From: an uncultured Bacteroidota bacterium
GTDB taxonomy: Bacteria; Bacteroidota; Bacteroidia; AKYH767-A; JABDAW01
Length of the DNA: 64,000 bases
Assembly: GCA_903844645.1 (NCBI GenBank)
Contig: CAIMUP010000027.1
Span: 6,547 to 70,546 of the forward strand
Direction: 5' to 3'
Part shown: positions 957-58,520 of the stretch, one piece after another
Layout: every line of letters starts with the position of its first letter
Position numbering within the stretch: the stretch's first letter is position 1
The notes under the pieces: generated by a model
Databases searched by the model: none
What the model was told of the DNA's origin: nothing
The model's input: the letters and a program-made list of their open reading frames with translations, nothing else
Position numbers and translations under genes: made by a program

Positions 957-1020
957 GCAAACTTTCGTATTTATTCGTTGTAAAGAGGTCTAATTCCTGT
1001 TTGGGGAGGAGTAAAACCTG

Positions 1021-1196
1021 TTTGGATTGCTCCTCCCCAAGTTTGGATTGTTCCTCCCCAAGCTTGGATTGCTTCTCCCCAAGCTTGGATTGTTCCTCCC
1101 CAAGCTTGGATTGTTCCTCCCCAAGCTTGGATTGTTCCTCCCCAAGCTTGGATTGCTCCTCCCCAAGCTTGGATTGCTCCATTCCAAGCTTGGAAT
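1021..1196. repeat. Tandem array of 21-bp units (ttggattgttcctccccaagc), about 8 copies; begins with an 11-bp-stem hairpin (ttggggaggag...ctcctccccaa)
   Basis: Direct reading of 1000-1235. It lies between the convergent ends of the lpxL-like gene and the giant T9SS gene. A degenerate copy follows at 1211-1235. Confidence 0.9.
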
Positions 1197-1339
1197 TGTT
1201 TAAAACCAATTGGTTTTGCTCCTCCCCAAACAGGGAATATTCCAAAAGAAAAAGGTTTTGCCATTCATCCCGAAGGGAAAAATGCAAAACCTTTTTGAAT
1301 AAGATGGATGAAATCTTAACGGGGAATGGTATTTAGGAG

Positions 1340-7300: not shown

Positions 7301-8473
7301 CAAGCTATTATCATAACAATACAATTCTGTAATTCCAGTAAATGCTTCAATGCCTATCATATCCTGTATTCCGAGTAAAGAAACATTAATTGCCCCATGA
7401 TATGCAGCAGCTTCATAGACTTCTATTTCATTGTTATGGTTTGTATTAATAGTAGTATCGCTCACCAATGCAGCTTTGAAAATAGAATCCTGAAAATAGA
7501 CTATATCTGGAGTGGGACAAAACAGGCTGAAAGATGCTGCATTATCTATATTAACTGAAGCCAGCCAATGGGCAGTTGCCCAGGCTACGTTGTCCACTTG
7601 TATGCAGGTCAGGTAGGGGTTACCATTGGCATAAAAGGTGGAATTTAAGGCGGCATTATTTCCATTGGCTATATTCAAATAAATAACACTATTATTGAAA
7701 CAATCGAAAAAAGTAAGTGCAGAGTTGTGGCTTGCATCTATACTGGATATATAATTATTCCAACAAATGAAATAAGTAAGCGCAGGGTTGTGGCTTAAAT
7801 CTATATCGGTTAATAAATTATTGAAACAGGTAAAATATGTAAGTGTTGGGTTATTACTTACATCTATATGTGTGAGATAATTATAGGTACAGCTAAGGTT
7901 GGACAGATTCAGATTATGGCTGACATCTAAGCTGGTCAGGTGATTTTGATCGCAATCAAGCATAAAAAGTTGGGTGTTATTACTCACATCTAAAGTAGTC
8001 AAGTTATTCTCAGAAATTTCTAAGGAATCTAAAACTGGATTATGACTTATATCTATGCTGGTTAGGTTATTATTGAAGGCATTAATATGAGTAAGAGAGG
8101 TATTGTTGCTAAAGTTTAAGCTGCTTAGACGATTTTCATAGCACCCCAGACGAATAAGTGCAGTATTGTGGCTCAAATCTAAATCATATAGTACATTGGT
8201 ACTACAATCCAGGTTTAATAAATTTATAAAAGCCTCTATACCGGTTAAGTCGTGAATGCCCAAATTCGAGACATTAATTCCATTTATCTCTGTTCCGATA
8301 AATGCTTCTGCCTCCGACACCTGAATTTCTCCATCACCATTCGTGTTAATGTCCAATCTTCCTACCAAATAAGCTTTAAAAGCAGGGTCAGGAATATTCA
8401 CGTTTTGACCAGCAGCATTCATTACCATCAAGAATGCCAGAACAAGAGTTACTGTTGTTAAGATTTGTTTCAT
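1340..8473 (-). CDS. Giant T9SS-secreted surface protein (2377 aa): signal peptide, 6 tandem modules (N-cap 'NIPDxxFKAxL..INTNGDGEIQ' + about 10 22-residue LRR-like repeats 'LDVSHNTALTxLxCxxNxLTSLDVS'), about 10 Cys-containing Ig-like domains, an FN3-like domain, and a Por_Secre_tail C-terminal domain
   Basis: Signal peptide MKQILTTVTLVLAFLMVMNAAGQ. The N-cap motif recurs six times. The Ig-like domains follow the pattern '...TFCxGGSVxLxAG..SYxWSNGATTQTITV...'. The C-terminus 'IYPNPAKDHLTIVF...LSEIPKGLYLVLMQNEDGVMQRKVVVE' matches the T9SS sorting-domain consensus. Confidence 0.85.
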   Translation of the reverse strand: MKQILTTVTLVLAFLMVMNAAGQNVNIPDPAFKAYLVGRLDINTNGDGEIQVSEAEAFIGTEINGINVSNLGIHDLTGIEAFINLLNLDCSTNVLYDLDLSHNTALIRLGCYENRLSSLNFSNNTSLTHINAFNNNLTSIDISHNPVLDSLEISENNLTTLDVSNNTQLFMLDCDQNHLTSLDVSHNLNLSNLSCTYNYLTHIDVSNNPTLTYFTCFNNLLTDIDLSHNPALTYFICWNNYISSIDASHNSALTFFDCFNNSVIYLNIANGNNAALNSTFYANGNPYLTCIQVDNVAWATAHWLASVNIDNAASFSLFCPTPDIVYFQDSIFKAALVSDTTINTNHNNEIEVYEAAAYHGAINVSLLGIQDMIGIEAFTGITELYCYDNSLNTLDVSHNTALTVLVCNHNNFNSLDVTQNTSLQTLDCSYNSIVHLDVSQNSNLVGLQCNGNSLVGLDVSHNSALGYLYCYSNPLFFLDVSHNTALNILGCSDNSLGVLDVSNNAGLSKLYCDYNNLTDIDISHNSALITFDCTHNSIFHLDVSVNTTLSNFYCSGNPVLNTLNIANGHNTDFSAFDASNNPDLTCIKVDDVAYATTTWTVGNGSIDSGASFSLNCACTAILNIPDANFKAALLANPAINTNGDNEIQVCEADAFTGTIDVNGLSIAQLAGIQNFPNITGLLCGGNTISTVDLSYNHALVYLYCDHNNFSSLDVSHNPALTTINCYNNMLTSIDVSNNPALTTLNCNYNSITNLDMSHNTSLTNLQCTNNALTNLTVANGNNTNMTTFSAINNAALSCISVDDTIWANANWTVSNFNIDASATFSLNCNCIVVVNIPDAIFKAYLVGRTDINTNGDGEIQVCEANAFAGDIQVDSRGIFDLTGIEAFPNIVMLDCYDNFILSLDLSHNTALTDLNCGRNILTTLDVSHNTALQYLRCYGNSMTTLDVTNNTALILFSTANNNLNSLNVANGNNTNITLFDATLNPNLSCITVDDIFYSSANWTVGNGSIDATASFSLNCAACAPIVNIPDANFKAYLLANTAINTNGDNEIQVCEATAFADYIYVPSLGITDLTGIEAFTGLATLYCYSNPIGSLDFSHNIALNTVYCSNNSLNSLNLMNCTALTYLECSSNSLTNIDFSQNTALTYIYCYDNMLSSLDVSNNAALQALVTYNNSLTMLDVSHNPLLNNFDCSFNTLTSLNLANGNNTNLEFFNAVNNPNLFCVQVDDVDYSTNYWIDNVDANAHFSLNCNCSDIVNIPNAAFKTALLADTAINTNGDGEIQFCEAEAFHGTMDVSHLFISSLTGIEAFTSLTGLICFNNYLNSFDISHNIALTYLDCSQNQISNLDVSNNTSLAELHCADDMLDNLDVTHNTALITLYCNNNIYSNYNNLISLDMSHNTALTYLDCSGNNSLSSLDVSHCTALTDLYCWNDLLTSINVTNNPALNTLYCYDNTVLSSLDLSHNIALTDLVCYDNSLNNLDVSHNTALLYLQCAYNNLTSLDVSLNTSLIELTPANNFINSLDVSNNTALTVLECNHNNISSLDVSHNPELIYFFCPYNDLHNLNVANGHNHNITTAHFWASHNPNLSCIQVDDIVYSTANWTVVSGDIDASESFSLNCTPCANPPTPIITSNGNTTFCDGGNVTLDAGTFTSYSWSNGATTQTITVASSGICGVTVTDANTCTGTASITVSINPNPTPVITSIGSTTFCDGGSVMLDAGTFISYSWSNGATTQTIITTIGGIYIVTVTNANTCTGTASIAVAVNPNPIPTIMGLTSTCAGTPVSLDAGSWISYLWSTSETIQLITTATGGAIQVTVTDGNGCTGVASTYVTINALPTPSIAPNGPTTFCDGGSVSLDAGSYASYLWNDGSSAETITAFGTQPYCVTVTDVNGCSGTTCLSVTVYSNLTAIITPNGPTAFCAGGSVALTASGGTAYSWSDGASTATINASASGTYSVTVSNGQGCSASASTTVTVYQNPIPTIIPNGPTTFCQGGSVLLNAGAYSSYLWSNGAITQSITVVASNPYRVTVTNAHGCTAAAAQINITVTPTITGLAIVGATTTCTGGNSSLSTNNTYSAYLWSNGATTQSITISATGIYYVTVSNGGNCSAAAHQSVTVLTAPIPNIISANLANICGGGNASLTASPVFAAYLWNTNATSQGIIINTGGSYSVTVTSVNGCTGMASTLIPGACNFPTFPVNATTNIAATTAMANWIQPTCYYGYTIRISKHNATIWSTHTISPNTHYTFSQLTHNTAYDWQIQANCNASGTVNSGFSAAQTFTTAPRMEEGDVASLATFNIYPNPAKDHLTIVFSSDKEQAYTLRLIDVMGRIMMNQNHTSVVGDNQIELNLSEIPKGLYLVLMQNEDGVMQRKVVVE

Positions 8474-15277: not shown

Positions 15278-16348
15278 ATGAAAACATACCTCCATTTCCT
15301 GGCGAAGATTATTTGCATCTTTCTTCTGATGCTAATTACCATCAATAGTATTGGGCAAAACAAAAGTAATATTGATACCTTCCGAGTCATGTTAAAGAAA
15401 TACGATGAATTAAAAAAAGAACCGGCTAATAAAGTGAATTTCTCATTAGATAGTATGAAGGTTGAAATTCTAAATGCAATGAGTTATGAATACGCGAATA
15501 TTAATACTGATTCTGCCCTTTTGTATGCTAATAAAGCATTAAAATTCTCTGAAAAGATTCATTCTAAAAAGGGCATGGCGGATGCCTATTATTATACGGC
15601 TGTTGTATTTACTGAATTAGGTAAGTATGACAAGGCATTGAAATATCATAAAAAGTCTTTAAAGGTTCATTTAAGAATAAATGATATGAAAGGTTGCTCT
15701 ATGTCCTATACCAGTATGGGTATTATTTATGACCTTCAAGGCTCTTATTCCAAGGCTATAAAATATTATACAATGGCGTTGAAGTTCTCACTATTGTTGA
15801 AGGATGACAAAGGAATCGCAGCAGACTATGGAAACATAGGGGTGGTGTATATGAATGAAAAGAAATATGATAGTGCGCTATCTAATTTCTTTACATCGCT
15901 GAAGATAGAAGAAGAAATAAATAATGTATCAGGTATTGCTCAAACTCTTAATAATGTTGGCATGATTTATCATAAACAAGGAAAGTATCCTGAAGCATTA
16001 GAGAGCCTTAATTTATCCCTGCAAAAGAAAGAAGAGATAGGAGATAAACGGGGTATTTCTTATTCTTATAATAACATTGGCGATGTGTATTGTGCACAAG
16101 GCAATTGCCAGAAAGCATTGGATAATTGCTTGCTTTCAATCAAGATGAAAGAAGACCTTGGCGACAAGTATGGCATTGCCTATTCTTACAACAGTATAGG
16201 GCTTATTTATAAGAGTTTTAATAAGTACCAAGAGGCGATGGAGTATGCGCAAAAAGGACTTGCATTAGCCCATGCAATCGGTGCGAAAGACTTGGAACAA
16301 GAGCTACTTAAACACATCGAGGAGTTAAAAACTTTGATGAAGAAGTAG
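15278..16348 (+). CDS. TPR-repeat protein with N-terminal signal/anchor
   Basis: Hydrophobic N-terminus, then repeated 'GMADAYYY.A.V...GKYDKALKY..K.L' TPR-like units. Confidence 0.7.
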   Translation: MKTYLHFLAKIICIFLLMLITINSIGQNKSNIDTFRVMLKKYDELKKEPANKVNFSLDSMKVEILNAMSYEYANINTDSALLYANKALKFSEKIHSKKGMADAYYYTAVVFTELGKYDKALKYHKKSLKVHLRINDMKGCSMSYTSMGIIYDLQGSYSKAIKYYTMALKFSLLLKDDKGIAADYGNIGVVYMNEKKYDSALSNFFTSLKIEEEINNVSGIAQTLNNVGMIYHKQGKYPEALESLNLSLQKKEEIGDKRGISYSYNNIGDVYCAQGNCQKALDNCLLSIKMKEDLGDKYGIAYSYNSIGLIYKSFNKYQEAMEYAQKGLALAHAIGAKDLEQELLKHIEELKTLMKK

Positions 16349-36552: not shown

Positions 36553-37392
36553 TCAAATTGGAAAATCAATAATTGAAATATCTAAACCATTCTCTGCAAT
36601 AACAGATTTCTTAAATTCAACATGTGGAATATTGATTCTTGCAATTTTAATAATTTCATTAATATTTTCTTCAGTCATTAATGAGCCGAAAATAATTTCT
36701 TTATAAGCAATTGAAGGCAATGTTTTTGTCCTTGTTTCTCTGGTATATGGAATTTGAGACCACCGAAACGCCCTATATTCTTCTTCAAAATTCCAGTTAT
36801 CTAATTTGTTAAAAATTTGCGTAAGCATTTGTTCCTCAAAACACATTCTTGGATACGGCATAATTTTCGGTAATTCATTACGATATTTAACAACATCACC
36901 ACCACCTACAAATTTAAACAAGATTTTTGACTCGAATCCAATACAAAAGCCTTTATGATTATTGCTATACTTTTTCCACATTTCAAAATTACTTGGGTTA
37001 GCAGTTAAACTGAGAATTCCAACAGTACTGTCAAATTCATTAAAACTCTCCCCTTCAAGTTTTTTTAAGTATTCTTTGTTTTTAAAAGGATTGCTGCTTG
37101 CAAAATCACTTGCATTTTTTCTGCGCTGTATTCTACTCAATCCTTCATTAGACTCTTTTGATAATTCCGCATGTCTTTTTTTAATTTCGTCTCTTTTTAA
37201 CAAATCATATCTTGTTGGATTTTTACAGTCAAAAGGATCCTCAAACCCTGAAGCTGGAGACAAATAGACTTGTAAATCTTGAATTATAGATTTATGAAAC
37301 TTATCACCCCAATCTCTATATTTATAAATTGGATTGGGGAATTTTAGGTCTTCGTATTTAATTTGTACTGTTTTGCATTTTGATTTCATCAC
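36553..37392 (-). CDS. DUF2971-family protein
   Basis: 'IYKYRDW...YLSPASGFEDPFDC' matches the DUF2971 'FNDPFE' signature. The gene is markedly AT-rich compared with its surroundings. Confidence 0.55.
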   Translation of the reverse strand: MMKSKCKTVQIKYEDLKFPNPIYKYRDWGDKFHKSIIQDLQVYLSPASGFEDPFDCKNPTRYDLLKRDEIKKRHAELSKESNEGLSRIQRRKNASDFASSNPFKNKEYLKKLEGESFNEFDSTVGILSLTANPSNFEMWKKYSNNHKGFCIGFESKILFKFVGGGDVVKYRNELPKIMPYPRMCFEEQMLTQIFNKLDNWNFEEEYRAFRWSQIPYTRETRTKTLPSIAYKEIIFGSLMTEENINEIIKIARINIPHVEFKKSVIAENGLDISIIDFPI

Positions 37393-37517
37393 GCAAAACT
37401 ATAAAAAAGCCCGCATGTATGAGATTTCTTGGTCTAATAAAATTTCCTTCTCCAAGGATTCTACACTTAGAAACCCGCCGAATCCTTGAAAAACCCAATT
37501 TTGCCCCCCCTCACTCC

Positions 37518-37783
37518 CAACTTTGGTCGTCTCGGGTTTAACTTTAGCCTCCACGGGTTTGACTTTGGTCGTCTCGGGTTTAACTTTAGCCTCCACGGGT
37601 TTGACTTTGGTTGTCTCGGGTTTAACTTTAGCCCCCAAGTCTCCAACTTTAGCCCCCTCGGGTTTGACTTTAACGCCCACGAGTCCAACTTTAGCCCCCT
37701 CCGGTCCGACTTTAAGACCCACTGGTTTAACTTTAATCGCCTCCATTTTAACTTTACTCCCCCTGCCTCCAACTTTAATATTC
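37518..37783. repeat. Tandem array of two interleaved 21-bp units (gactttggtcgtctcgggttt / aactttagcctccacgggttt), about 12 copies
   Basis: Direct reading. Lies upstream of the DUF2971 gene start. Confidence 0.9.
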
Positions 37784-37810
37784 TCAAGTCAGATAAATAT
37801 TGGCAAGTAA

Positions 37811-38085
37811 ATTCCACAACACTCATGTAAATCTGGAACACTCATGTAAATTCCACAACACTCATGTAAAACCCAAGAACACTCATGTAAGCATCAAGAA
37901 CAGTCATGTAACTACCAACAACACTCATGTAAGCACCAACAACACTCATGTAAAACCCAAGAACACTCGTGTAACTCCCAACAACACTCATGTAAGTACC
38001 AAGAACATTCGTGTAACTACCAAGAACACTCATGTAAGCACTAAGAACACTCATGTAATTACCAAAAACACTCGTTACAAAACCC
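37811..38085. repeat. Tandem array of 21-bp units (aacactcatgtaaaacccaag), about 13 copies; only about 25 bp from the preceding array
   Basis: Direct reading. Two unrelated arrays sit back-to-back between the DUF2971 gene and the fadD-like gene. Confidence 0.9.
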
Positions 38086-40958: not shown

Positions 40959-41095
40959 TTTTAATTTCCTGATACTATTCATCATCGTTTTGTTGCACCT
41001 CCCCGAGGTCGGTATCACAAAACGATGATAAAATAAAAAATGTAAATCCCACGAATGAATCCTGACAGCTGCCCCCTGCTGCTGTCAGGTTTCAT

Positions 41096-41704
41096 TCAGC
41101 TTAATAAACTCGACTTATTATACATTTTAATAAACTCCTGAAACCCCTGATAATAGTCAAAAGGCATACTAAGTTCATCATACATTTTCTCATATTTATT
41201 CAACCAAGGAAGATAATCTTCTTTAGTTGAATTAGCAGAATCAATTATTGAAACTTCCTCTAATGCTCTATTACAAATCTCAAGTGTAGATAGATACCAC
41301 TTTGAAGGAACGTAATCAGCTTTCTCATCAGTTCCAAAGATAAGAGATAGACCTCCCATAGATTTTACTCCAGGAGCATCAGTTATAAATTCAGAACAAT
41401 GGTAAATATCAGTAACATCTGTCTCGCTTCCAAAAAAGATTAAGTTGATATATTTCCTCGAATGATTACCCATAAAACAATAACCCTTACTACCAAAATT
41501 ACAACTTTTCAATCCACACTCCCCTTTATGAATCTCCAATTCACTATCACCAAACTTTTTAAATTCCTCGAAAACTCCATTCACCTTCCTCAAAAAGACA
41601 TCCTTCTTTACACCATAATAAATGCTCGAATCATCAATAACCATCCCAAGCATCTCAATATCCATTTGAGAAAAGTATTTTACTATTGCATCTTTTTTAA
41701 GCAT
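41096..41704 (-). CDS. Hypothetical protein (Cys-rich; co-transcribed with the Cas4-like nuclease gene)
   Basis: 202-aa ORF ending 40 bp downstream of the nuclease gene on the same strand. Very AT-rich. Contains a 'HKGECGLKSCNFGSKGYCF...YHCSEF' cysteine cluster. No recognisable family. Confidence 0.5.
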   Translation of the reverse strand: MLKKDAIVKYFSQMDIEMLGMVIDDSSIYYGVKKDVFLRKVNGVFEEFKKFGDSELEIHKGECGLKSCNFGSKGYCFMGNHSRKYINLIFFGSETDVTDIYHCSEFITDAPGVKSMGGLSLIFGTDEKADYVPSKWYLSTLEICNRALEEVSIIDSANSTKEDYLPWLNKYEKMYDELSMPFDYYQGFQEFIKMYNKSSLLS

Positions 41705-41743
41705 ATCATTTACTTAAATTTTTTATCATTGGAAATTTTTTTG

Positions 41744-43531
41744 TTACAAAGGAAGATCATCAGAACTTTCATTCCCTGGCAAAAATTCTTGAAGAGTTCG
41801 CCTCTCATAAGGCAAAGTAAGTTCATCTAATCTCCCTGTTTTATGATAACAGTATTTACAAACTCCACAATTAACACATTTGTTTGAATTCAATTCGTCA
41901 ACAGCAAAAAGAGATATTTTATCCTGTTTAAATTCCTTAACATTTTGAAGAACTTTAGCTAATGTTTCTTTATCATTTTGGTCAGGAGTAATTTTGAAAA
42001 TACTAAATCCCTTTATCTTGTAATGTGCCTTAGAGTTTTCTTGGTGGGGTTGTTCTTGATTATTTTGTTTTACAAAATCCCAATACCAGTATATTAGAAT
42101 CCCATATTTTGAATCCAGTTCATTTAGCTCTAGTATATGATTTAGGATTTCTATTCTATGATTGGGAAATTCTGTTTGAACTTGTTCCTTATTCAATTGA
42201 TATTTCGAAAATTTTTCTTCAACAACATAAACCGTTTGATTAGAATCTTTGAATACATAATCAGGGGCACCACAATTATCCGTTGAGGTGTTATAAAATA
42301 CTTTGGTTGTTTTACCCGATTTATTTTCAAGAAGTAAAGTTGAGCTAAAAATATTTTTGATTAGAGCATTAACAGTCGGATCAATCCCTATTTCTAAAAA
42401 ATCAGCAAAAGCTTTTTCAATGTTTTGCGTTGCCTTGAAAATATTGAGTCTGTCTAATAGTAACTTTTTTTCAGTCCAAACTAATTCTATATTAATGTCA
42501 TGATCATCTTCAGTCGGGATAGATTGTTGTATTGCAAAGCTAACTGGGCAATACACAAAGTCAGCAATTTTACTTGAACTGATAATCTCAGTTTCAATTC
42601 TGTTAGTTGTCCAAGTTTGTGTTTTAAAATCAATTTCTATAAGAATCTTCTTTATTGCATTACCGATTGATTTAAGTTCCCAAGATGCTTCATAATCATT
42701 CAAGCCATTAAAATTATTCTCCCAATGTTTTAGATATTGAATTTGCCCGCTCATAAGTGACATTAAGTAATTGTCTCTTATTTCATCATTTGAAAATCCG
42801 ATTTTAGAAAGTAGTAGATTGAATAGATTTTCTCCCTTAGAATGTAAAATGATTGCTGTATGAAAGGCTAAAGTTTCTACAAGATCAGGATACTCTTTAA
42901 GCCCAATAAGAGCTATCCCTTTGAATTTTTCATAATCGTTCATGTAAAATAATGCTATTGAATAGAGCTTAAAATATTTTTTTCTTTCTGGTTCATTGTT
43001 TATTGGAATACCATATTCGTTTATAAAAGTCGAGTTGGTTTGTAATGAATTTGGGTCAAGTGGTTTCAACCATTCAATAACCTTTTCATATTCTCTTTGA
43101 CCATTGTAATACTCTACTACCGAAAAAATTGCTTTATAATATGGGGAGTATTTTTTATCTAACTGGGATTGGTATTGAATTTTTATCTCGGTACCATATT
43201 TTAATAAAACATCTTCTTTATTGTAAATATATTCCTTTTGATTTTCGTCCCATTTCTTTTTAATTTTAGTGTAGTAAATGTTCCAATAGTAATCATCGAT
43301 TATTGTGTCTTTCCATTCAGGATAACGAGACATGATAGTTTCACAAATCATTAGTGCTTCTTCATATTGCCCATTTTTCCTTAAACAAAATGCATAATTT
43401 TTTCCATAAAAAATACTCAAATTTGAAGGTGGATTCTCCCAAAGTTTTTTAAAAATGGGAATAGCCGCTTTGTATTTTTTGTCTTTTAAAAGTTGGTTAG
43501 CTTGCTTATATATTTCTTCTGATGTTGGCAT
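41744..43531 (-). CDS. TPR/helical N-domain fused to a Cas4/RecB-like PD-(D/E)xK nuclease with a Cys cluster (Fe-S or Zn)
   Basis: About 330 aa N-terminal TPR-like helical region. Then 'ADFVYCP' (Cas4-like N-terminal Cys), 'GAPDYVF' (motif II Asp), 'VYVVEEK' (ExK) and C-terminal 'CVNCGVCKYC' (CxxCxxCxxC). Confidence 0.55.
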   Translation of the reverse strand: MPTSEEIYKQANQLLKDKKYKAAIPIFKKLWENPPSNLSIFYGKNYAFCLRKNGQYEEALMICETIMSRYPEWKDTIIDDYYWNIYYTKIKKKWDENQKEYIYNKEDVLLKYGTEIKIQYQSQLDKKYSPYYKAIFSVVEYYNGQREYEKVIEWLKPLDPNSLQTNSTFINEYGIPINNEPERKKYFKLYSIALFYMNDYEKFKGIALIGLKEYPDLVETLAFHTAIILHSKGENLFNLLLSKIGFSNDEIRDNYLMSLMSGQIQYLKHWENNFNGLNDYEASWELKSIGNAIKKILIEIDFKTQTWTTNRIETEIISSSKIADFVYCPVSFAIQQSIPTEDDHDINIELVWTEKKLLLDRLNIFKATQNIEKAFADFLEIGIDPTVNALIKNIFSSTLLLENKSGKTTKVFYNTSTDNCGAPDYVFKDSNQTVYVVEEKFSKYQLNKEQVQTEFPNHRIEILNHILELNELDSKYGILIYWYWDFVKQNNQEQPHQENSKAHYKIKGFSIFKITPDQNDKETLAKVLQNVKEFKQDKISLFAVDELNSNKCVNCGVCKYCYHKTGRLDELTLPYERRTLQEFLPGNESSDDLPL

Positions 43532-43628
43532 AGTATTTTAAATCAACTTTGGTAATTCCTTTCTACAAGTTCAATCCTATTATATAATATCTTATTTCAT
43601 CGCGACAAAACTAACAAATCTCCATAAA

Positions 43629-43662
43629 ACAAAAAAGCCCAACACTTCGTGTCGGGCTTTCC
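43629..43662 (-). terminator. Rho-independent terminator for the 43678..44706 gene
   Basis: Read on the minus strand: gaaagcccgacacgaagtgttgggcttttttgtttt. A 10-bp GC-rich stem followed by a T-run, 15 bp after the stop. Confidence 0.6.
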
Positions 43663-43677
43663 TGTTATTTAATTCCC

Positions 43678-44706
43678 TTATACCAAAGGAGGTGTCGGAG
43701 CACTCGAAGAACTCTTCCCCTTAGCCAATATCCCCGTCACATGAGCATCATCAGTAGCACTCAAACTCTCCACTATTACATTATGCCCGAATACACCACC
43801 AAAATCATCAGGAATAGACAATTTAATTTCACTGTCGGGAGCTAAAACATAGCCACCTGTAGCGGGTACCGTCGTCCCATCAGAAATAAAAACTTTCACG
43901 CTCGCCAATACACTATGATTCCTCAAAGTCAAAGTATCACCAGGCAAATATTTATTATGAAACCAAGCCACATGTTCCCCTGGGTGCAACACATCTTCTT
44001 CTGTCTTCATCGTCTTTCCGAGGTCAATAATTTTCCTTCCGTTATCGTAAGTCGTAACAAAAGTTCCGTGAAGCAGTCTATAAGTATGAATCAAATTATC
44101 CTGCTTTTTCATTGCCTTTTTCAACAGTTTCATTTGAGCCACGATGTCGCCGGTAGCAGCACTTTTCACCACCTGTGCTATCCTGAATTGAGGATTCGCC
44201 AAAGTCAATGCCGCAATGTCAGAAGTATAAGTAGTAATCTGTAAAGGAGTGATATTAACATTCGGCAACTCCAAAACAGGAATCGCATTTACTTTACCTA
44301 AAATAAAATTCATTTTCACCAAAGCCTCCTGAATAGCACACTGTGTCAGATCAGTATAAGTATAATGCATCGCCTCCGCCAAAACAGGTTGTTCAGGAGT
44401 AGTATTCTCCGCCCAAGCCTTCGTCCCGATATTCATGTGAACACCCATCGTAGCAGTATCTTTCCACAATTGCTCCTTGTTCGTGGTATTGCCATGCAGG
44501 TCAGCTTCCGTCAATCCTGCATCCAAAAGAATCTGGTCAAATATCTGTTGCACCTTGGCCTTAGCCTGCACCACAAAAGTATTTCCAATCCATATTGCAC
44601 TGTTGGTTGGTATGTCCAAAACTCCCCGCTCCACGGGTACCATTCTCAAATAATTTAATTGCTTGTCGGTCATTGTATTTAATTTTAACGGAGCGAAGAT
44701 AAACAA
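43678..44706 (-). CDS. Hypothetical protein
   Basis: 342-aa ORF with its own terminator hairpin. A second in-frame Met (MTDKQLNYL, 44673) is a possible start. No recognisable motifs. Confidence 0.5.
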   Translation of the reverse strand: MFIFAPLKLNTMTDKQLNYLRMVPVERGVLDIPTNSAIWIGNTFVVQAKAKVQQIFDQILLDAGLTEADLHGNTTNKEQLWKDTATMGVHMNIGTKAWAENTTPEQPVLAEAMHYTYTDLTQCAIQEALVKMNFILGKVNAIPVLELPNVNITPLQITTYTSDIAALTLANPQFRIAQVVKSAATGDIVAQMKLLKKAMKKQDNLIHTYRLLHGTFVTTYDNGRKIIDLGKTMKTEEDVLHPGEHVAWFHNKYLPGDTLTLRNHSVLASVKVFISDGTTVPATGGYVLAPDSEIKLSIPDDFGGVFGHNVIVESLSATDDAHVTGILAKGKSSSSAPTPPLV

Positions 44707-53777: not shown

Positions 53778-56700
53778 TTACTGAACCATAATCTTAGTTT
53801 GTAATGTCTGTCCACCTGTTTCGAGGCTTAAGAAATATACACCCTTAACGATGTTTGCAGTATTTAATTCAACTTGGTTATCGCCGATTGCAGAAGCATT
53901 CACTTGGCTCATGATAACTCTTCCTGTAAGATCTACTAAACGCAAGGTATAGTTGTCAGATGTTTGAGAATTGAAGACAACAGTAGCATGGTCAGTAGCT
54001 GGATTTGGATAAACATTGAAAGCAGAGATTGTTTCGATGTCGCCATCAGCCATTCTTGCAGCAGTGAATAATTGTGGAGCACTTGGACCTGAATTCGTTG
54101 TTGTGCTACAGTTAGTTTGGATAGTCCATGAATAGTTATGTCCATGAGTTAAACCAGAGAACGTGTAGTGAGAATTCGGTGCGAAAGTGAAAGTAGCAAC
54201 TGCCAATGTGTTCAAGTCTGTACGAACGATTGTATAACCAGAAACGCATGAAGGCTGATTCCAAGAAACATAAGCAGAGTTCGTAGTGATGCTTGAAGTA
54301 GCCATGTTAGTAGGCAATACGCAATCAACACTTAAATTAACACATGCAACTCCTGAACAACCGTTAGTGCTTGTAATTGTTACACAATACAATCCTGGAT
54401 GACCTGGAGTAATTGTGATAGAAGCTAAAGTAGCACCTGTGCTCCAGTTGTAAGCATAACCAGCTTGAGCAGCTAAAGTTACGTTACCTGTGTTAGCGCA
54501 ATACGTAGCAAGACCGGTTGTGGTAATGTTAGTATTAACACCTGTTAACACCTGTACAGAGTGAGTAGCTGTTCCTGTGCAACCACAAGCATTGGTAACG
54601 GTTACTGTGTAACCAGCAGAACCAGAAGCAATAGTAGTTGTTTGAGTAGTAGCGCCATTGCTCCATAAATAAGCAGCATAGCCAGCACCAGCATTAATGG
54701 TTACAGGACCACAATTTGCGAAAGAAGGAGAAGCTGTCATTGTAACAACTGGTCTTGGGCAGAAACTGGTAGTAGTGTAAGAAGCTGTACCGCTACATCC
54801 ATTTGCATTAGTTACAGAAACAGTGTATGTTCCTGCAGCAGTAATGTTAATGTTTTGAGTAGTAGCACCAGTGCTCCATAAGTAAGTAGCGAAACCAGAG
54901 TTAGCACTTAATACCATTGAAGAGGCAGTACAAGGAGCAGGAACTGGACCAGCAGTGATTATTGGAGTTACGAAATCGGTTACTGTAACAGTAGCACAAA
55001 CAGTACCTGTACAACCATTGGAATAAGAAACGGTTACGCAATAAGTTCCTGAAGTGGTTATAGTAGTTCCATAATCTGCAACTGTAGAGCCATTACTCCA
55101 AATATAAGAAGTATAATGTGGATTGTAAATAACATTTAAGTTAACAGAACCACCTTGACAGAAAGTCAAAGGACCATTTGAAGTAATATTTGGAACAGGT
55201 GCCACACCAACAGTAATTGAATGGTGAGCAGTACCTGTACAACCTGCAGCATTAGAAACAGTTACTATGTAATTTCCTGTATTAGTAACAGTGATAGATT
55301 GGGTTGTTGCACCAGTACTCCATAAATAACCTGCATAAACACCAGTAGTTAAAATAGAAGAACCACCTTGACAGTCATAAACAGCACCAGAGATGGTAGG
55401 AATTGGATTCTGACTAACTGTAACAGATTTGCAAGCAGTTCCTGTACATCCGTTACCATCAGTAACAGTTACACAATAGGTACCAGCAGCAGTAACTGTA
55501 ATAGAAGAAGAATGAGAACCATTGCTCCATGTATAAGAAGCCCAAGTACCAGCATTTAATGTTCCTGAACCAGGAGCACAAATTTGAGATGGACCAGAGA
55601 TAGTTGGAGTTGGAGCAGAATTAATCGCTACTGATTGACAAGCTACACCTGTACATCCGTTACCATCGGTTACAGTTACACAATAGTTTCCTGAAGTAGT
55701 AACAGTTGCAGAAGCATTAGTTCCACCATTGCTCCATGAATAAGAAGCATAAGTTCCAGTGCTTAAAGTAATAGAACCACCGCAAGAACTGGAAGGACCA
55801 GAAACAGCAGGAGTTGGAGCAGAATGAACGCTTACTTGTTGACAAGCAACACCTGTACAACCATGAATATTTGCAACAGTTACACAATAGTTACCACTAG
55901 ATGTAACAGTAATAGAACCATTAGTTCCACCATTGCTCCATGAATAAGAAGCCGCTGTTCCTGTACTTAATGTTAAAGAACCAGAGCATGAACTTGTAGG
56001 TCCAGAGATACTTGGTTGAGGATTATCATAAATTGTAACGCCTACACATGTAGAACCTGAACAACCATGACCATCAGTTACAGTAACACAATTTTGTCCT
56101 GTAGAACATGCTGAAATAGTTTGGTTAGTTCCTCCATTTGACCAGTTGTAACCAGCATAAGAACCAGCGTCTAAAGTTACGCAAGAACCAGCACAAGCAG
56201 TAGTAGCACCAGAGATAGAAGGAGTTGGGTTATCATAAATTGTTACATCAACACAAGTAGAACCTGAACAACCGTTACCATCAGTTACAGTTACACAATT
56301 TTGTCCTGTAGAACAAGCTGTAATAGATTGGTTTGTTCCTCCATTTGACCAGTTGTAACCAGCATAAGAACCAGCATCTAAAGTTACGCAAGAACCTGCA
56401 CAAGCACTAGTAGCACCAGATATAGAAGGAGTTGGATTATCATAAATTGTAACATCTGTACAAGCAGTTCCCATACATCCATTACCATCAGTAACCATTA
56501 CACAATAGTTACCTGATGAACATACAGTAGTATTTTCGGAATTATCTCCTGTTGTCCAAGCGTAATCAGCCCAAGAACCTGCATCTAAAGTTACGCAAGA
56601 ACCAGAACAAGCAGTAGTAGTACCAGAAATAGAAGGAGTTGGATTGTCATAGATAGTTACCCACTGACAAGCTGAACCCATACAACCGTTACCATCAACT

Positions 56701-58520
56701 ACAGTAACACAATAGTTATCTGAAGAACAAGCAGAAGTTGTTGGTGTCATATCTCCATTGCTCCAAGAATAACCATCCCAAGAACCTGCATCTAAAGTAA
56801 CACAAGAACCTGCACAAGCAGAAGTATTTCCAGAGATTGAAGGAGTTGGATTTGCATTAAAAGAAACAAATTGGCTAGCTGAACCCATACAACCATTTCC
56901 ATCAGTAACAGTTACTATTTCGGTAGCAGCACCACTTGTAAAGGTATAACTTTCATCTGTTGAAAAATAACCTGTAATACTATTATACCAAGAATAACTT
57001 GCCCAAGAACCAGCATCCAAAGTTACTGTATTACCATCACATACTGTTGTAGGTCCATTAGATGTAATAACTGGAACTGGATTAGTATTAACTGTTACAT
57101 CCATACAATCTTCACCTGTACATCCATTAGGATCTGTAATAACTACACAATATGTTCCTGAAGTAGTAGCTGTAACAGTTTCGTCTGTTCCGCCATTATA
57201 ATTCCAAGAATAATTATCCCATGTTCCGCCATCTAAAACAACTGAACCTCCATCGCAGAAAGTAGTGTTACCACCAGCTGTGATATGTGGATGAGGTGTT
57301 GGATTAACAGTTACATCTTGACAAGCAACGCCTGTACAACCATTATCATCAGTTACTGTACAGCAGAATGTTCCGCCATTGTCTAAAGTAATCATTTCAG
57401 CTGATGAACCGTTGCTCCAGCTATAAGAAGCATAAGTTCCTGCATCTAAAGTTACATTTCCTCCATTACAGAATACTGGAGGTGAGCTATAAGTAAGTGT
57501 AGGTGTTGGAGAATCATGAACCACTACATCAATACAACCTACGCAAGTACATCCACCTGCATCAGTAACAGTACAGCAATAAGAACCTGCAGTTACAGCA
57601 GTAAGAGTTTGAGAATGTGAACCATTGCTCCAGGTATAAGCTGCCCAAGAACCAGCATCTAAAGTTACATTACCGCCTGAACAGAATGATAAATTACCAG
57701 AAGCGGTGATTGAACAAGAAATGTTGTTGTTTCCACCTGTTACATCATGGCAAGCAGCGGCTGTACAGCCCCAGAAAGAAGTAGCAGTTACGCAATAAGT
57801 GCCTGCTGATGTTACATCAATACTTGGTGTGTTTGCGCTGTTGCTCCAAGAATAAGCATTAACTCCCCAGCTACCATTAGCAGTAAGGGTTGCATGTCCG
57901 CCTCCGCAATTCAAATTGCCTGTTTGGCTGATTGAAACTGATGGATTTGGCAATACAATAATAAAACGATACGCGACGCCTGTACATCCCCAAACATTGG
58001 TTACTGTACAAGAATACCAACCGATGTTGGTAGCCGATGTGGTTTGTGTGGTAGCACCGTTGCTCCACATGTAAGAAGAATACCCTGCGCCTGCATCCAA
58101 ATTCATGTGACCTGCGCACCAGTTAAATGGTCCGCCGATGTGAATGACTGGATGTGGACGTGGATGAACCGTTACGTGAATCGAAGCTACACCTGTGCAG
58201 CCGTTCGAAGCAGTAACCGTTACATGGTACGTGCCGGTGAAAAACGCATTAATACTTTGCGTGTTTGCACCTGTGTTCCAATGATAATGGGAATAATTCC
58301 CTGTGCTTAAATGCACATGTCCACCAGCACAAATGGTCGTCGGACCATTCGCTGTAATGGTTGGAGGTACCGGAATAGTACATTCCGAATTCACCGAAAT
58401 TTCGGTGTTGATAGAAGGTGTCCCATTTCCTTCTGTAGTCGGGGTTTTTGCAGACAGGTTAGTGCCGAATAAGGCAAGAACCAAGCAAAGGATGACTGGT
58501 AAAAGTTTTAATTTGTTCAT
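53778..58520 (-). CDS. Giant T9SS-secreted adhesin-like protein (1580 aa): about 18 Cys-containing Ig-like repeats, FN3-like domain, Por_Secre_tail
   Basis: Signal peptide. Repeats of '...TxCxGxxVTLDAGS.A.Y.WSNG...TIT...G.YCVTVTDGNGC.G..C..VT....P.P' including near-identical copies. C-terminal 'ISAFNVYPNPATDHATVVF...KGVYFLSLETGGQTLQTKIMVQ'. Confidence 0.85.
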   Translation of the reverse strand: MNKLKLLPVILCLVLALFGTNLSAKTPTTEGNGTPSINTEISVNSECTIPVPPTITANGPTTICAGGHVHLSTGNYSHYHWNTGANTQSINAFFTGTYHVTVTASNGCTGVASIHVTVHPRPHPVIHIGGPFNWCAGHMNLDAGAGYSSYMWSNGATTQTTSATNIGWYSCTVTNVWGCTGVAYRFIIVLPNPSVSISQTGNLNCGGGHATLTANGSWGVNAYSWSNSANTPSIDVTSAGTYCVTATSFWGCTAAACHDVTGGNNNISCSITASGNLSFCSGGNVTLDAGSWAAYTWSNGSHSQTLTAVTAGSYCCTVTDAGGCTCVGCIDVVVHDSPTPTLTYSSPPVFCNGGNVTLDAGTYASYSWSNGSSAEMITLDNGGTFCCTVTDDNGCTGVACQDVTVNPTPHPHITAGGNTTFCDGGSVVLDGGTWDNYSWNYNGGTDETVTATTSGTYCVVITDPNGCTGEDCMDVTVNTNPVPVITSNGPTTVCDGNTVTLDAGSWASYSWYNSITGYFSTDESYTFTSGAATEIVTVTDGNGCMGSASQFVSFNANPTPSISGNTSACAGSCVTLDAGSWDGYSWSNGDMTPTTSACSSDNYCVTVVDGNGCMGSACQWVTIYDNPTPSISGTTTACSGSCVTLDAGSWADYAWTTGDNSENTTVCSSGNYCVMVTDGNGCMGTACTDVTIYDNPTPSISGATSACAGSCVTLDAGSYAGYNWSNGGTNQSITACSTGQNCVTVTDGNGCSGSTCVDVTIYDNPTPSISGATTACAGSCVTLDAGSYAGYNWSNGGTNQTISACSTGQNCVTVTDGHGCSGSTCVGVTIYDNPQPSISGPTSSCSGSLTLSTGTAASYSWSNGGTNGSITVTSSGNYCVTVANIHGCTGVACQQVSVHSAPTPAVSGPSSSCGGSITLSTGTYASYSWSNGGTNASATVTTSGNYCVTVTDGNGCTGVACQSVAINSAPTPTISGPSQICAPGSGTLNAGTWASYTWSNGSHSSSITVTAAGTYCVTVTDGNGCTGTACKSVTVSQNPIPTISGAVYDCQGGSSILTTGVYAGYLWSTGATTQSITVTNTGNYIVTVSNAAGCTGTAHHSITVGVAPVPNITSNGPLTFCQGGSVNLNVIYNPHYTSYIWSNGSTVADYGTTITTSGTYCVTVSYSNGCTGTVCATVTVTDFVTPIITAGPVPAPCTASSMVLSANSGFATYLWSTGATTQNINITAAGTYTVSVTNANGCSGTASYTTTSFCPRPVVTMTASPSFANCGPVTINAGAGYAAYLWSNGATTQTTTIASGSAGYTVTVTNACGCTGTATHSVQVLTGVNTNITTTGLATYCANTGNVTLAAQAGYAYNWSTGATLASITITPGHPGLYCVTITSTNGCSGVACVNLSVDCVLPTNMATSSITTNSAYVSWNQPSCVSGYTIVRTDLNTLAVATFTFAPNSHYTFSGLTHGHNYSWTIQTNCSTTTNSGPSAPQLFTAARMADGDIETISAFNVYPNPATDHATVVFNSQTSDNYTLRLVDLTGRVIMSQVNASAIGDNQVELNTANIVKGVYFLSLETGGQTLQTKIMVQ
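56020..56460. repeat. Near-identical 213-bp (71-codon) tandem duplication inside the 1580-aa gene
   Basis: 'atcataaattgt[a/t]ac...agatagaaggagttgg' occurs twice in succession with only a few substitutions. Lower-identity copies extend to about 56900. Confidence 0.8.

Follow-up and report, generated by a model that had tools for sequence, protein, structure and literature searches.

CRISPR-associated Cas4 proteins (PF01930/DUF83), such as SSO0001, Pcal_0546, the type I-C protein and the Cas4-Cas1 fusion, have a motif II aspartate, a motif III ExK, one N-terminal cysteine and a C-terminal CxxCx5C cluster. Outside CRISPR loci, solo Cas4-family nucleases are widespread and nearly unstudied, the characterised ones being ACE1, which is associated with an Argonaute, and a handful of solo-Cas4 enzymes from archaea. 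ACE1 with pAgo is a case of a solo Cas4-family nuclease in non-CRISPR defence (PMC12094033), and defence or repair roles have been predicted for solo-Cas4 proteins (PMC5704561). The Cas4 phylogenomics paper contains no occurrence of 'tetratricopeptide' or 'Bacteroidetes', and a TPR fusion is not mentioned there.

The 595-aa protein described here shares motifs II and III, the N-terminal cysteine and the CxxCx5C cluster with CRISPR-associated Cas4; however, it is only ~14-15% identical to it, has no cas1, cas2 or CRISPR, carries a 315-aa N-terminal extension made of TPR and helical segments, has family-specific HKTG...PY motifs after the cysteine cluster, and has the motif-I His and the Gln and Tyr of QhXXY replaced. 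As with solo Cas4 and ACE1 nucleases, for which defence has been proposed or shown (PMC5704561, PMC12094033), it is stand-alone and non-CRISPR, but in contrast to ACE1 its locus encodes neither an Argonaute nor a fused or neighbouring UvrD, and it belongs to a separate sequence family. The iron-staple repair nucleases (AddB, Dna2, Exonuclease V, MGME1) are conserved repair genes, whereas this gene is patchy, AT-rich and islet-borne, and its product has no helicase domain or partner; the SF1 helicase of the AddAB/RecBCD helicase-nucleases, fused or adjacent, is absent from the flanks in the window (the whole 64-kb stretch of DNA that was analysed), and none recurs in 27 family loci. A homologous N-terminal TPR module is found in the TPR-DUF7017-CSD proteins (PDLC01170, 'TPR repeats containing protein fused to cold shock-like domain'), in which DUF7017 and CSD stand in the place of the Cas4-like nuclease.

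DSR2 and the Avs/STAND-TPR proteins are single-chain defence proteins that join a repeat sensor to an effector, with or without an NTPase. The analogy is functional only, as the 595-aa protein is not homologous to them and lacks SIR2 and the STAND NTPase; it would similarly combine a helical repeat suited to a protein ligand with a destructive effector. Here it is proposed, at a probability of about 0.5, that the 595-aa protein is a single-polypeptide sensor-effector nuclease in a horizontally acquired two-gene AT-rich islet.

Layout of the islet and domains of the 595-aa protein

The features of the locus are the following:

41031..43625: extent of the AT-rich islet, with the 595-aa and 202-aa genes
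41031..41097, minus strand: terminator-like element at the islet 3' end, hairpin and T-run (41031-41040)
41096..41704, minus strand: ORF of the 202-aa protein, separated by 39 nt from the nuclease gene that precedes it
41744..43531 (stop codon included), minus strand: ORF of the TPR and Cas4-like nuclease, 595 aa
41747..41791, minus strand: acidic disordered C-terminal tail, aa 581-595, ending ...SSDDLPL (pLDDT <50 at aa 587-595)
41792..42586, minus strand: RecB/Cas4-type PD-(D/E)xK nuclease domain, aa 316-580
42587..42847, minus strand: helical segment, aa 229-315, common to the whole nuclease family
42848..43531, minus strand: TPR-like helical solenoid, aa 1-228, with one small beta-hairpin (aa 168-178)
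43532..43625, minus strand: intergenic region preceding the nuclease gene; contains a promoter-like site
43626..43660, minus strand: intrinsic terminator of the 331-aa gene lying upstream, AAAGCCCGACAC-GAAG-TGTTGGGCTTT followed by TTTTGTTTT

All three minus-strand ORFs of the initial annotation were recovered with the same boundaries, and its codirectional 595-aa and 202-aa genes, said to be about 40 bp apart, are separated by 39 nt from stop to start. The third ORF (342 aa, or 331 aa from the first ATG, the start used by most gene callers) had been placed after the nuclease gene; on the coding strand it is actually upstream. Its own terminator was correctly recognised: it is a canonical, insulating intrinsic terminator (43626-43660) that forms the upstream boundary of the islet, and GC falls across it from 0.428 to 0.299. 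The 595-aa gene (GC 0.299, z -2.6) and the 202-aa gene (0.322, z -2.1) have, together with the nearby PDC-S31 gene, the lowest GC among the 40 window ORFs (~0.42). The segment had been described as AT-rich throughout, which holds for these two genes but not for the 342/331-aa gene (0.428). Horizontal acquisition is likewise supported by composition for the pair but not for a three-gene unit, and the three-gene cassette as such falls, with the 331-aa gene having normal GC, its own terminator and orthologues (33-77% identity) in unrelated neighbourhoods without nuclease or 202-aa genes. No PADLOC model matched the 342-aa protein.

At the opposite end, the closing hairpin has 20-nt arms (41053-41072 / 41078-41097; 90% complementary) and overlaps the TGA stop of the 202-aa gene; the ~100 bp downstream of this gene are also kept in another copy (L001). 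The promoter-like site, TTGTCG-18-TATAAT at 43608..43579, is a consensus match alone, and such matches are no commoner than in shuffled sequences. The reported lack of CRISPR-cas context was confirmed, with no cas gene or helicase within +/-10 kb by Pfam labels, and no CRISPR array or family and no tRNA in the 64-kb window. The immediate flanks are metabolic genes and no defence island; a PDC-S31/DUF2971 defence-candidate gene is found 4 kb from the islet.

The AF2 model of the 595-aa protein has a pLDDT of 90.6 and a pTM of 0.86. The structure of its N-terminal domain matches BamD and other TPR proteins, Pfam TPR models match aa 4-76 under their gathering cut-offs, and the PADLOC 'TPR' model PDLC01170 matches aa 4-206 (1.2e-10). 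The earlier division into a ~330-aa TPR/helical N-domain was right about TPR, but the TPR part covers ~228 aa and residues 229-315 belong to the nuclease family: the family HMM match begins at residue 228, and the segment (consensus LLxxxGF...Y...E299) is also found in TPR-less members, with E299 kept in 128 of the 150 family representatives over which motif conservation was counted. For the nuclease domain, structure searches returned Cas4, Dna2, Exo5 and MGME1, including SSO0001 Cas4, ACE1 and type I-C Cas4 in Foldseek and phage Cas4 and PD-(D/E)xK proteins in BFVD, which bears out the restriction-endonuclease-like Cas4/RecB-type C-domain of the initial annotation. At the profile level, the Cas_Cas4 Pfam model did not match the protein at E<=1, the nuclease-family profile matched none of the PDB chains at E<=1, and none of the PADLOC, PHROG and NCBIfam models recognises the nuclease part. 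No PADLOC system model covered the nuclease, only the TPR part being matched (PDLC01170).

The 202-aa protein and its family

The 202-aa protein, which had no match in Pfam, NCBIfam, PADLOC or PHROG and has an AF2 model with a pLDDT of 37, represents the short version of a small family, members of which close several AT-rich islets at the 3' end. Its homologues (70-75% identity) sit behind unrelated upstream genes, and all four short-form copies are directly downstream of a differing AT-rich cargo gene, encoding the TPR-nuclease, a pentapeptide protein, a DnaJ-domain protein, and a 393-aa protein faintly similar to Vsr/DUF559. Long forms are found at two loci: as two tandem copies behind a PDC-S31 gene and a gene for a GajB-like helicase (L050), and as a distant homologue (E 2e-8) located two genes from a family nuclease that heads the same operon, with an NsnB/AriA-like ATPase (L034). 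The copies kept at 70-75% identity also show signs of gene conversion between them.

The bicistronic arrangement, with its 39-nt gap and common terminator-like boundaries, the cargo genes of the four short forms, and the L034 and L050 loci could all be read as a two-gene toxin-antidote or effector-adaptor module, in which the nuclease would be the toxin and the 202-aa protein an antitoxin, immunity protein or regulator, or, more broadly, in which the 202 family would be a shared component of interchangeable upstream proteins. A specific antitoxin, however, should co-vary with its toxin, while the 202-aa protein is kept at 70-75% behind unrelated genes, and 26 of the 27 other nuclease loci have no 202-like gene (a close homologue occurs in 0/27); we consider this module unlikely. 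Conservation of the 595-202 pair, which the initial annotation had suggested checking, was not found, nor was the steady co-occurrence expected of a toxin-antitoxin or immunity pair; 202 homologues follow unrelated genes. We infer that the 202-aa protein, presumably co-transcribed with the nuclease gene, is a lineage-specific accessory and no universal partner of the nuclease.

A further conjecture, which we hold to be quite improbable, is that the 202 family is the shared part of modular conflict systems of two or more genes in this Bacteroidota lineage, with interchangeable upstream sensor/effectors. The TPR-Cas4-like protein would be one plug-in effector of a hitherto undescribed defence architecture, and the remodelled active site of its clade would represent a new substrate mode. 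The upstream plug-ins would in that case be TPR-Cas4-like nuclease, pentapeptide DNA-mimic-like, J-domain and Vsr-like proteins. As a marker of several AT-rich variable islets, the 202 family could help to find new cargo genes.

Distribution, neighbours and proposed role of the nuclease family

The nuclease family includes about 274 representative homologues (sequence clusters), mostly in Bacteroidota, with single members in Proteobacteria, Acidobacteria, Chlorobiota, Kiritimatiellia, Cloacimonadota and Firmicutes; its distribution is patchy, with 36 motif matches among 185,579 species genomes. Relatives match the nuclease domain of the 595-aa protein at E down to 1e-60, and among 84 of them PDDEXK_1 (PF12705) is matched by 49 (best 8e-10) and Cas_Cas4 by 21 (E<0.01). 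Going by transitive homology, the 595-aa protein is a PDDEXK_1-type nuclease with a cysteine staple, outside CRISPR loci. The family is a distinct solo Cas4-like family, and the TPR-fused protein is a new architectural variant among solo Cas4-like nucleases. Its nuclease core is joined to TPR (~15/150), LRR, WG repeats plus S1, CSD, or to no partner (117/150), and the TPR module is also joined to DUF7017 and a cold-shock domain in protein P0002, which matches the N-terminal domain of the 595-aa protein at 1.9e-17 in a local search. The family keeps an iron-staple nuclease core and swaps protein- or nucleic-acid-binding modules, and such swapping on a constant core is a signature of NTPase-free sensor-effector immune proteins. 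No nuclease homologues were found in phage or plasmid collections, and related MAGs carrying the 331-aa and 202-aa genes have no nuclease orthologue at the same position or elsewhere.

In a survey of +/-2 genes at 27 family loci, known defence genes adjoin about a fifth of the loci (a raw count). These include mad3 (three times), mad8, DndD/PbeC (twice), a CBASS cyclase with a 2TM effector, a DRT reverse transcriptase, and ATPases similar to AriA or GajA (AriA-like twice); Sa_NUDIX, RmuC, KAP_NTPase and DUF4062 were found among the Pfam labels of the neighbours. The majority of neighbours have housekeeping functions (urate oxidase, DnaB, PurL, ClpB, FtsZ) and no neighbour gene family recurs across the 27 loci, helicases included, so the apparent association with defence islands is only moderate.

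The 595-aa protein probably works by itself as a nuclease directed against phages or surveying DNA, given the patchy taxonomy, the low GC, the interchangeable sensor-like fusions (TPR, LRR, WG, CSD, S1) and some defence neighbours; the case for defence is a plausible one built on circumstantial evidence. In the proposed mechanism, the TPR solenoid (aa 1-228) would pack against the Fe-S-stapled Cas4/RecB-type PD-(D/E)xK nuclease and recognise a phage protein or a complex of the host as its protein ligand, and this binding would gate or target the nuclease, which would then cut or resect DNA ends or ssDNA and thereby restrict the invader, or the host as abortive infection. If phage restriction were shown, a compact single-gene type of defence would be gained and the origin of Cas4 would be linked to stand-alone immune nucleases; as the defence systems of Bacteroidota are poorly charted, the gain would be direct there.

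The same protein might instead be a housekeeping or auxiliary DNA repair or recombination nuclease, a solo Cas4-like end-processing enzyme comparable to AddB, Dna2, Exo5 and MGME1 and with no role in phage conflict, which the TPR domain and the acidic tail would bring to DNA ends or to DNA coated with SSB. Dna2, Exo5 and MGME1, among its closest folds, are repair or replication nucleases, many family neighbours are housekeeping genes, and the ...DDLPL tail, which we take to resemble the C-terminal tip of SSB, would fit such recruitment (~9/150 relatives have ends like [DE]x[LIF]P[FLI]). An evolutionary pattern typical of ordinary cellular genes has also been reported for solo-cas4 (PMC5704561). 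A repair role is nevertheless distinctly unlikely in view of the patchy distribution, the low GC of both genes, the lack of orthologues in the related MAGs, the highly variable fusions, and the absence of a helicase or repair gene partner in the window flanks and at the 27 loci.

Catalytic motifs and cysteine staple

The invariant signature of the family is Cys...PDY...EEK...KCxxCx5CxHKTG, and the motifs initially picked out in the 595-aa protein (FVYCP, GAPDY, EEK) are the family-invariant ones. C328 of FVYCP (42548-42550) is kept in 142/150 representatives, D424 of GAPDY (42260-42262) in 146/150, E439 and K440 of VVEEK (42212-42217) in 149 and 146/150, and C552, C555 and C561 (within 41849-41878) in 149/150 each. 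The 'CVNCGVCKYC' cluster of the initial annotation was correct for these three cysteines, in the Cas4 spacing CxxCx5C, but C558 is not conserved. The spacing is the same as in SSO0001 (C188/191/197) and Pcal_0546 (C200/203/209), in which one N-terminal and three C-terminal cysteines are Fe-S cluster ligands (PMC4176176). C328, C552, C555 and C561 are the predicted cluster ligands here.

Of the Cas4 motif-I His, a metal ligand, and the QhXXY motif (both defined in PMC4176176), the 595-aa protein has neither the His (T353) nor the Gln and Tyr (E461, H465), while all three are intact in 120/150 relatives. Its clade (27/150) lacks the motif-I His and its closest members also lack the Gln and Tyr; D424, E439 and K440 are kept in every member, which argues for continued selection on catalysis. 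With His, Gln and Tyr absent, the protein could have a weak or changed nuclease activity, metal and substrate handling are likely to differ from canonical Cas4, and the subclade may have an activity different from that of Cas4.

That the domain is catalytically degenerate and acts by binding DNA ends or ssDNA or as a scaffold, perhaps as a regulator or anti-defence decoy, is very unlikely: the lost residues, the nearly inactive Pcal_0546 mutants in the equivalent Q and Y (PMC4176176) and a passage of PMC4625639 on a Cas4 derivative turned nucleocapsid protein would fit, but D424, E439 and K440 are strictly kept, a passage of PMC8610317 describes a LinCas4 Tyr mutant as still active, and the phage and plasmid collections held no homologues. 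By keeping D-ExK and the cysteine staple without His and QhXXY, the subclade represents a natural experiment on the roles of these motifs.

Layout and composition of the islet

The three reverse-strand genes that the initial annotation had grouped as one AT-rich defence cassette, together with the signals between and after them, are as follows, in transcription order:

43678..44706, reverse strand: 342-aa ORF, first of the three
44673, reverse strand: first ATG of this ORF, giving a 331-aa form; the start preferred by most gene callers for 100%-identical copies
43626-43660, reverse strand: intrinsic terminator of the textbook type, 3' of the 331-aa gene (AAAGCCCGACAC-GAAG-TGTTGGGCTTT, then TTTTGTTTT)
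41744..43531, reverse strand: 595-aa ORF (TPR-nuclease), second of the three
41096..41704, reverse strand: 202-aa ORF, third of the three
41031-41097, reverse strand: hairpin with 20-nt arms overlapping the stop codon of the 202-aa ORF, with a T-run after it

Relative to 40 non-overlapping window ORFs (per-gene GC, mean 0.419, sd 0.046), the genes for the 595-aa and 202-aa proteins are of foreign composition, with GC of 0.299 (z -2.6) and 0.322 (z -2.1), respectively, and only 39 nt separate the stop of the former from the start of the latter. This GC contrast, the terminator and the closing hairpin together delimit a bicistronic AT-rich islet of ~2.6 kb, flanked by a nitronate monooxygenase (NMO)-like gene on one side and the 331-aa gene on the other. 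The cassette thus contains two genes instead of three, because the 331-aa gene has a GC of 0.428, ordinary among the 40 ORFs, its own terminator and varying contexts elsewhere. Its product, called at 321 aa in one of the 100%-identical copies, is homologous to 15 proteins from related Bacteroidota MAGs, at 33-77% identity and almost all of 321-331 aa; the three contexts examined have different neighbours each time, with neither a family nuclease nor a 202-like gene in any of them.

The window search found neither a tRNA nor an integrase around the islet, nor any flanking repeat of note. Candidate att sites or terminal inverted repeats were discarded, the flanking direct and inverted repeats being short and at chance level except for the terminator hairpins, and a phage or plasmid origin was discarded on tblastn searches of 50,697 phage records and 72,556 plasmid records, which gave no match. 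Between the 202-aa gene and the NMO-like gene convergent with it, a second hairpin at 40978-41032 (16-nt arms that are 94% complementary, loop of 23 nt) forms a double terminator-like region together with the hairpin at 41053-41097.

The sole further gene among the 40 ORFs as AT-rich as the nuclease gene (36553-37392, reverse strand, GC 0.299) encodes a 279-aa DUF2971 protein matching the PADLOC defence-candidate model PDC-S31 (1e-93); it is 4 kb from the islet, with acyl-CoA synthetase and NMO-like genes between. Between the PDC-S31 and acyl-CoA synthetase genes, 21-nt units are tandemly repeated in two distinct arrays (37519-37722, ~9 copies, and 37807-38073, ~12.9 copies; 72-97% matches). 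They give heptad-repeat ORFs on both strands (e.g., 37399-37746, 'KVKPE...'), gene callers place ORFs of 70-115 aa on them, and they are not CRISPR-like, since they have no spacers.

Architecture and conservation of the nuclease family

Direct assignment of the 595-aa protein failed. Single-sequence searches of Pfam, NCBIfam, PHROGs and the PDB gave no nuclease match, nor did a PDB sequence search with the family profile; the N-terminus had weak TPR signals in the single-sequence library searches, the C-terminal half had none, and a word-indexed homologue search returned, apart from the query, a single TPR protein. The PADLOC model PDLC01170, titled 'TPR repeats containing protein fused to cold shock-like domain', matches aa 4-206 (1.2e-10). 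The nuclease assignment was therefore made by exhaustive HMMER search and structure prediction.

A phmmer search of 1.84 billion representatives with aa 285-595 found 274 proteins at E<=1e-3, 202 of them at E<=1e-10. The columns that stay invariant when 84 of these are aligned are the Cys in FCPVS, P-D-Y, E-K in VVEEK, and K-C-x-x-C-x5-C-x-H-K-T-G followed by P-Y, exactly the motifs picked in the initial annotation, with one correction to its terminal 'CVNCGVCKYC' cluster: C552, C555 and C561 are conserved, but the fourth Cys, C558, is not. Pfam PDDEXK_1 is matched by 49 of the 84 relatives and Cas_Cas4 by 21.

The AlphaFold2 model, built with 75 sequences (pLDDT 90.6, pTM 0.86), has the following parts:

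To roughly aa 228: TPR-like solenoid of ~14 helices
aa 229-315: helical segment, part of the family-wide core
aa 316-580: alpha/beta nuclease domain
aa 581-595 (window 41747-41791): disordered acidic tail

The predicted fold includes a restriction-endonuclease-like fold and, with the motifs, bears out in essence the earlier call of a TPR domain fused to a Cas4-like nuclease. A pTM this high suggests that the TPR and nuclease domains are packed against each other.

Cas4 proteins are defined by RecB motifs I, II and III, a QhXXY motif and four Cys, one N-terminal and three C-terminal, as in SSO0001 (C32/C188/C191/C197) and Pcal_0546 (C64/C200/C203/C209), with CxxCx5C spacing (Lemak et al., PMC4176176). 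The corresponding residues were counted in 150 family representatives.

Conservation of Cas4-type residues among 150 representatives (numbering of the 595-aa protein)
C328: 142/150
D424: 146/150
E439: 149/150
K440: 146/150
C552, C555 and C561: 149/150 each
Motif-I His: 123/150
Gln of QhXXY: 125/150
Tyr of QhXXY: 133/150

With His, Gln and Tyr all intact in 120 of the 150, the family overall thus qualifies, by its residues, as a bona fide Cas4-like iron-staple nuclease family.

Most members (117/150, median length 383 aa) consist of the core only, while 23 have an N-terminal extension of >150 aa and 14 a C-terminal extension of >100 aa. The TPR domain is common to ~15/150; other fusions include LRR, WG repeats with S1, an N-terminal cold-shock domain and McrBC-like segments, and in homologue P0002 the same TPR module is joined to DUF7017 and a cold-shock domain, the architecture described by PDLC01170. 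The family appears, from these architectures, to be a constant destructive domain with interchangeable protein- or nucleic-acid-binding modules, and this combination is the main structural argument for a putative sensor-effector role.

Acidic tails ending in DDLP[LF] or similar are found in ~9/150 members (including P0009, P0015, P0150, P0117, P0077, P0090, P0010 and P0068) and resemble the C-terminal tip of SSB; dozens of other members have '(V/E)FPEELKK' C-terminal to the LPY motif. Both look like short linear docking motifs. A carboxylate clamp, in which the TPR domain would bind a C-terminal acidic peptide (its own ...DDLPL tail or the SSB tip), was considered and set aside as low-probability speculation. 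In a pairwise alignment, K9, N12 and N45 align with Lys/Asn at the carboxylate-clamp positions of the CHIP TPR; against the clamp, these residues are not kept in the closest homologues, only the ~9/150 members have such a tail, and the model leaves it undocked (pLDDT <50).

The 202-aa protein and its islets

The 202-aa protein has no match in Pfam, NCBIfam, PADLOC or PHROGs, and its AlphaFold2 model (pLDDT 37) is unusable. Just three close homologues (70-75% identity) were found in 5.8 billion clusters, at least two of which share their ENA samples with the window genome, so that two of these copies may be paralogues within one genome. Each of the four copies closes its own AT-rich islet on the 3' side (islet GC 0.25-0.34 vs 0.40-0.49 in the flanks), with different cargo:

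Window 41096-43531: TPR-nuclease
L003:5937-8979: 512-aa pentapeptide-repeat protein
L001:6868-10612: J-domain protein, with a TPR/Aca2-like and an ExoX_C-like gene ahead of it
L005:6734-9375: DUF4760 protein and a 393-aa protein with faint Vsr/DUF559 similarity

DNA similarity between the copies is limited to the ORF, except that the window and L001 also share ~100 bp beyond its 3' end. Similarity of the window copy to that of L003 is 92-98% over the first ~150 nt and 60-70% later, a mosaic that suggests gene conversion between copies.

Longer forms were found in two further loci. A metagenome scan gave L050, an AT-rich array (586-6446) encoding, in order, a GajB/Nhi-like SF1 helicase, a 274-aa protein, a PDC-S31/DUF2971 protein, a 226-aa protein and a tandem pair of long forms (344 and 348 aa; 45% identical across the 202-aa region), with a small DUF2281-like ORF after them; the array resembles a defence island centred on the 202 family. 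The PDC-S31 homologue there (2653-3501) is two genes upstream of the long forms. The Cys residues of the 202-aa protein were rejected as a family-defining zinc or metal site, being absent from the long-form paralogue L050a. In L034, from a Chryseobacterium MAG, a reverse-strand operon (252-5154) encodes a 409-aa Cas4-like protein of the nuclease family (PADLOC Cas4, weak match at 3e-6), an AAA_15/AAA_21/DUF3696 ATPase (NsnB 9e-39, AriA 4e-24), a 314-aa protein and then a 312-aa protein matching the 202-family profile over the whole 202-aa region (E 2e-8). This operon may be a multi-gene system linking the two families.

Members of the 202 family are rare and reside in defence-like AT-rich islets. 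The family co-occurs with the nuclease family twice, in the window and in L034, and it is not an obligate partner, because 26 of the 27 other nuclease loci have no 202-like gene; a conserved 595+202 pair was accordingly dropped as a family-wide feature. Set between the close bicistronic arrangement in the window and this scarcity elsewhere, the reading of the two proteins as a toxin/adaptor pair is unlikely, if the best placed of the alternatives to a defence nuclease.

Neighbourhoods, candidate function and alternatives

Loci of the nuclease family were collected with a degenerate DNA pattern for KCxxCx5CxHKTG, unique in the window, which matched 36 loci in 185,579 species genomes, at least 27 of them encoding family members; the count is a lower bound, since around half of the family escapes the pattern. 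Three IMG/VR matches to the pattern were rejected as unrelated small proteins outside the family. The loci are mostly from Bacteroidota (Cytophagales, Chitinophagales, Flavobacteriales and Sphingobacteriales), with single matches in Thiobacillus, Oceanobacter, Maricaulis, Geopsychrobacter, Acidobacteria, Chlorobiota, Kiritimatiellia, Cloacimonadota and Pelotomaculum. An all-against-all comparison of neighbours at the 27 family loci found no recurrent partner family, and the nuclease is a stand-alone gene.

Among 68 neighbours within two genes of family loci, checked against defence models (E<1e-5), matches were to mad3 (three), mad8 (two), DndD/PbeC (two), AriA/GajA/LmuB-like ATPases (two), a DRT reverse transcriptase and a CBASS cyclase accompanied by a 2TM effector; further matches were to Sa_NUDIX, RmuC, KAP NTPase and DUF4062. 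By estimate, a known defence gene adjoins roughly a fifth of the loci, and enrichment beside defence genes is suggestive only. The majority of the 68 are housekeeping genes (urate oxidase, DnaB, PurL, ClpB, FtsZ). A repair or recombination nuclease, set against these mixed surroundings and the foreign composition of the islet, is somewhat less likely still than the toxin/adaptor pair.

Solo Cas4 and Cas4-like PF12705 proteins are already a known kind (PMC5704561), and ACE1 is a solo Cas4-like protein with a demonstrated defence role alongside pAgo (PMC12094033). Literature searches turned up no account of a TPR-fused NTPase-less Cas4-like protein, of a TPR-Cas4 fusion or of this Bacteroidota-centred family, and PADLOC has no model for the nuclease. 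DSR2 and the TPR-bearing Avs proteins combine a repeat sensor with an effector and are, by analogy only, functional analogues of the 595-aa protein, which differs from them in having neither an NTPase nor a SIR2 domain.

A defence role is a reasonable but unproven interpretation of these sequence features. The TPR domain would bind a protein ligand and thereby gate or target the nuclease, and the family-wide helical segment (aa 229-315) could serve in DNA binding or in oligomerisation. The nuclease might act on ssDNA or DNA ends, as do Cas4 enzymes, which are 5'->3' or bidirectional ssDNA exonucleases/endonucleases (PMC4176176), and the result would be restriction of invading DNA or abortive infection.

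The 595-aa protein itself has T353, E461 and H465 in place of the His, Gln and Tyr. These positions vary among its closest relatives (P0007, P0008, P0010, P0016, P0033 and others), and 27/150 members lack the motif-I His; the D, E, K and Cys residues are kept in all of the closest relatives. In Pcal_0546, Q149A and Y153A are almost inactive (PMC4176176), and a Tyr mutant of LinCas4 is reported to be still active (PMC8610317). Catalysis is probably retained, because the D/E/K triad is strictly conserved; metal coordination and substrate handling appear to have diverged, and activity may be lowered or altered. That the domain is only a degenerate DNA-binding derivative of a Cas4-like domain is, between these substitutions and the kept triad, the least probable alternative. 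The locus would be of greater interest if the 202-family pattern, a shared downstream gene with interchangeable upstream genes, were a functional system.

Elsewhere in the window, the sole Rfam match at the gathering threshold is a DUF805b RNA (RF02914; 58551-58583, reverse strand, 42.4 bits, E 1e-8), just upstream of a 1580-aa ORF (53778-58520) whose GC3 of 0.207 is the window minimum. A 356-aa ORF at 15278-16348 (forward strand) also has low GC (0.342, z -1.7), and a giant ORF of 2377 aa is located at 1340-8473 (reverse strand).
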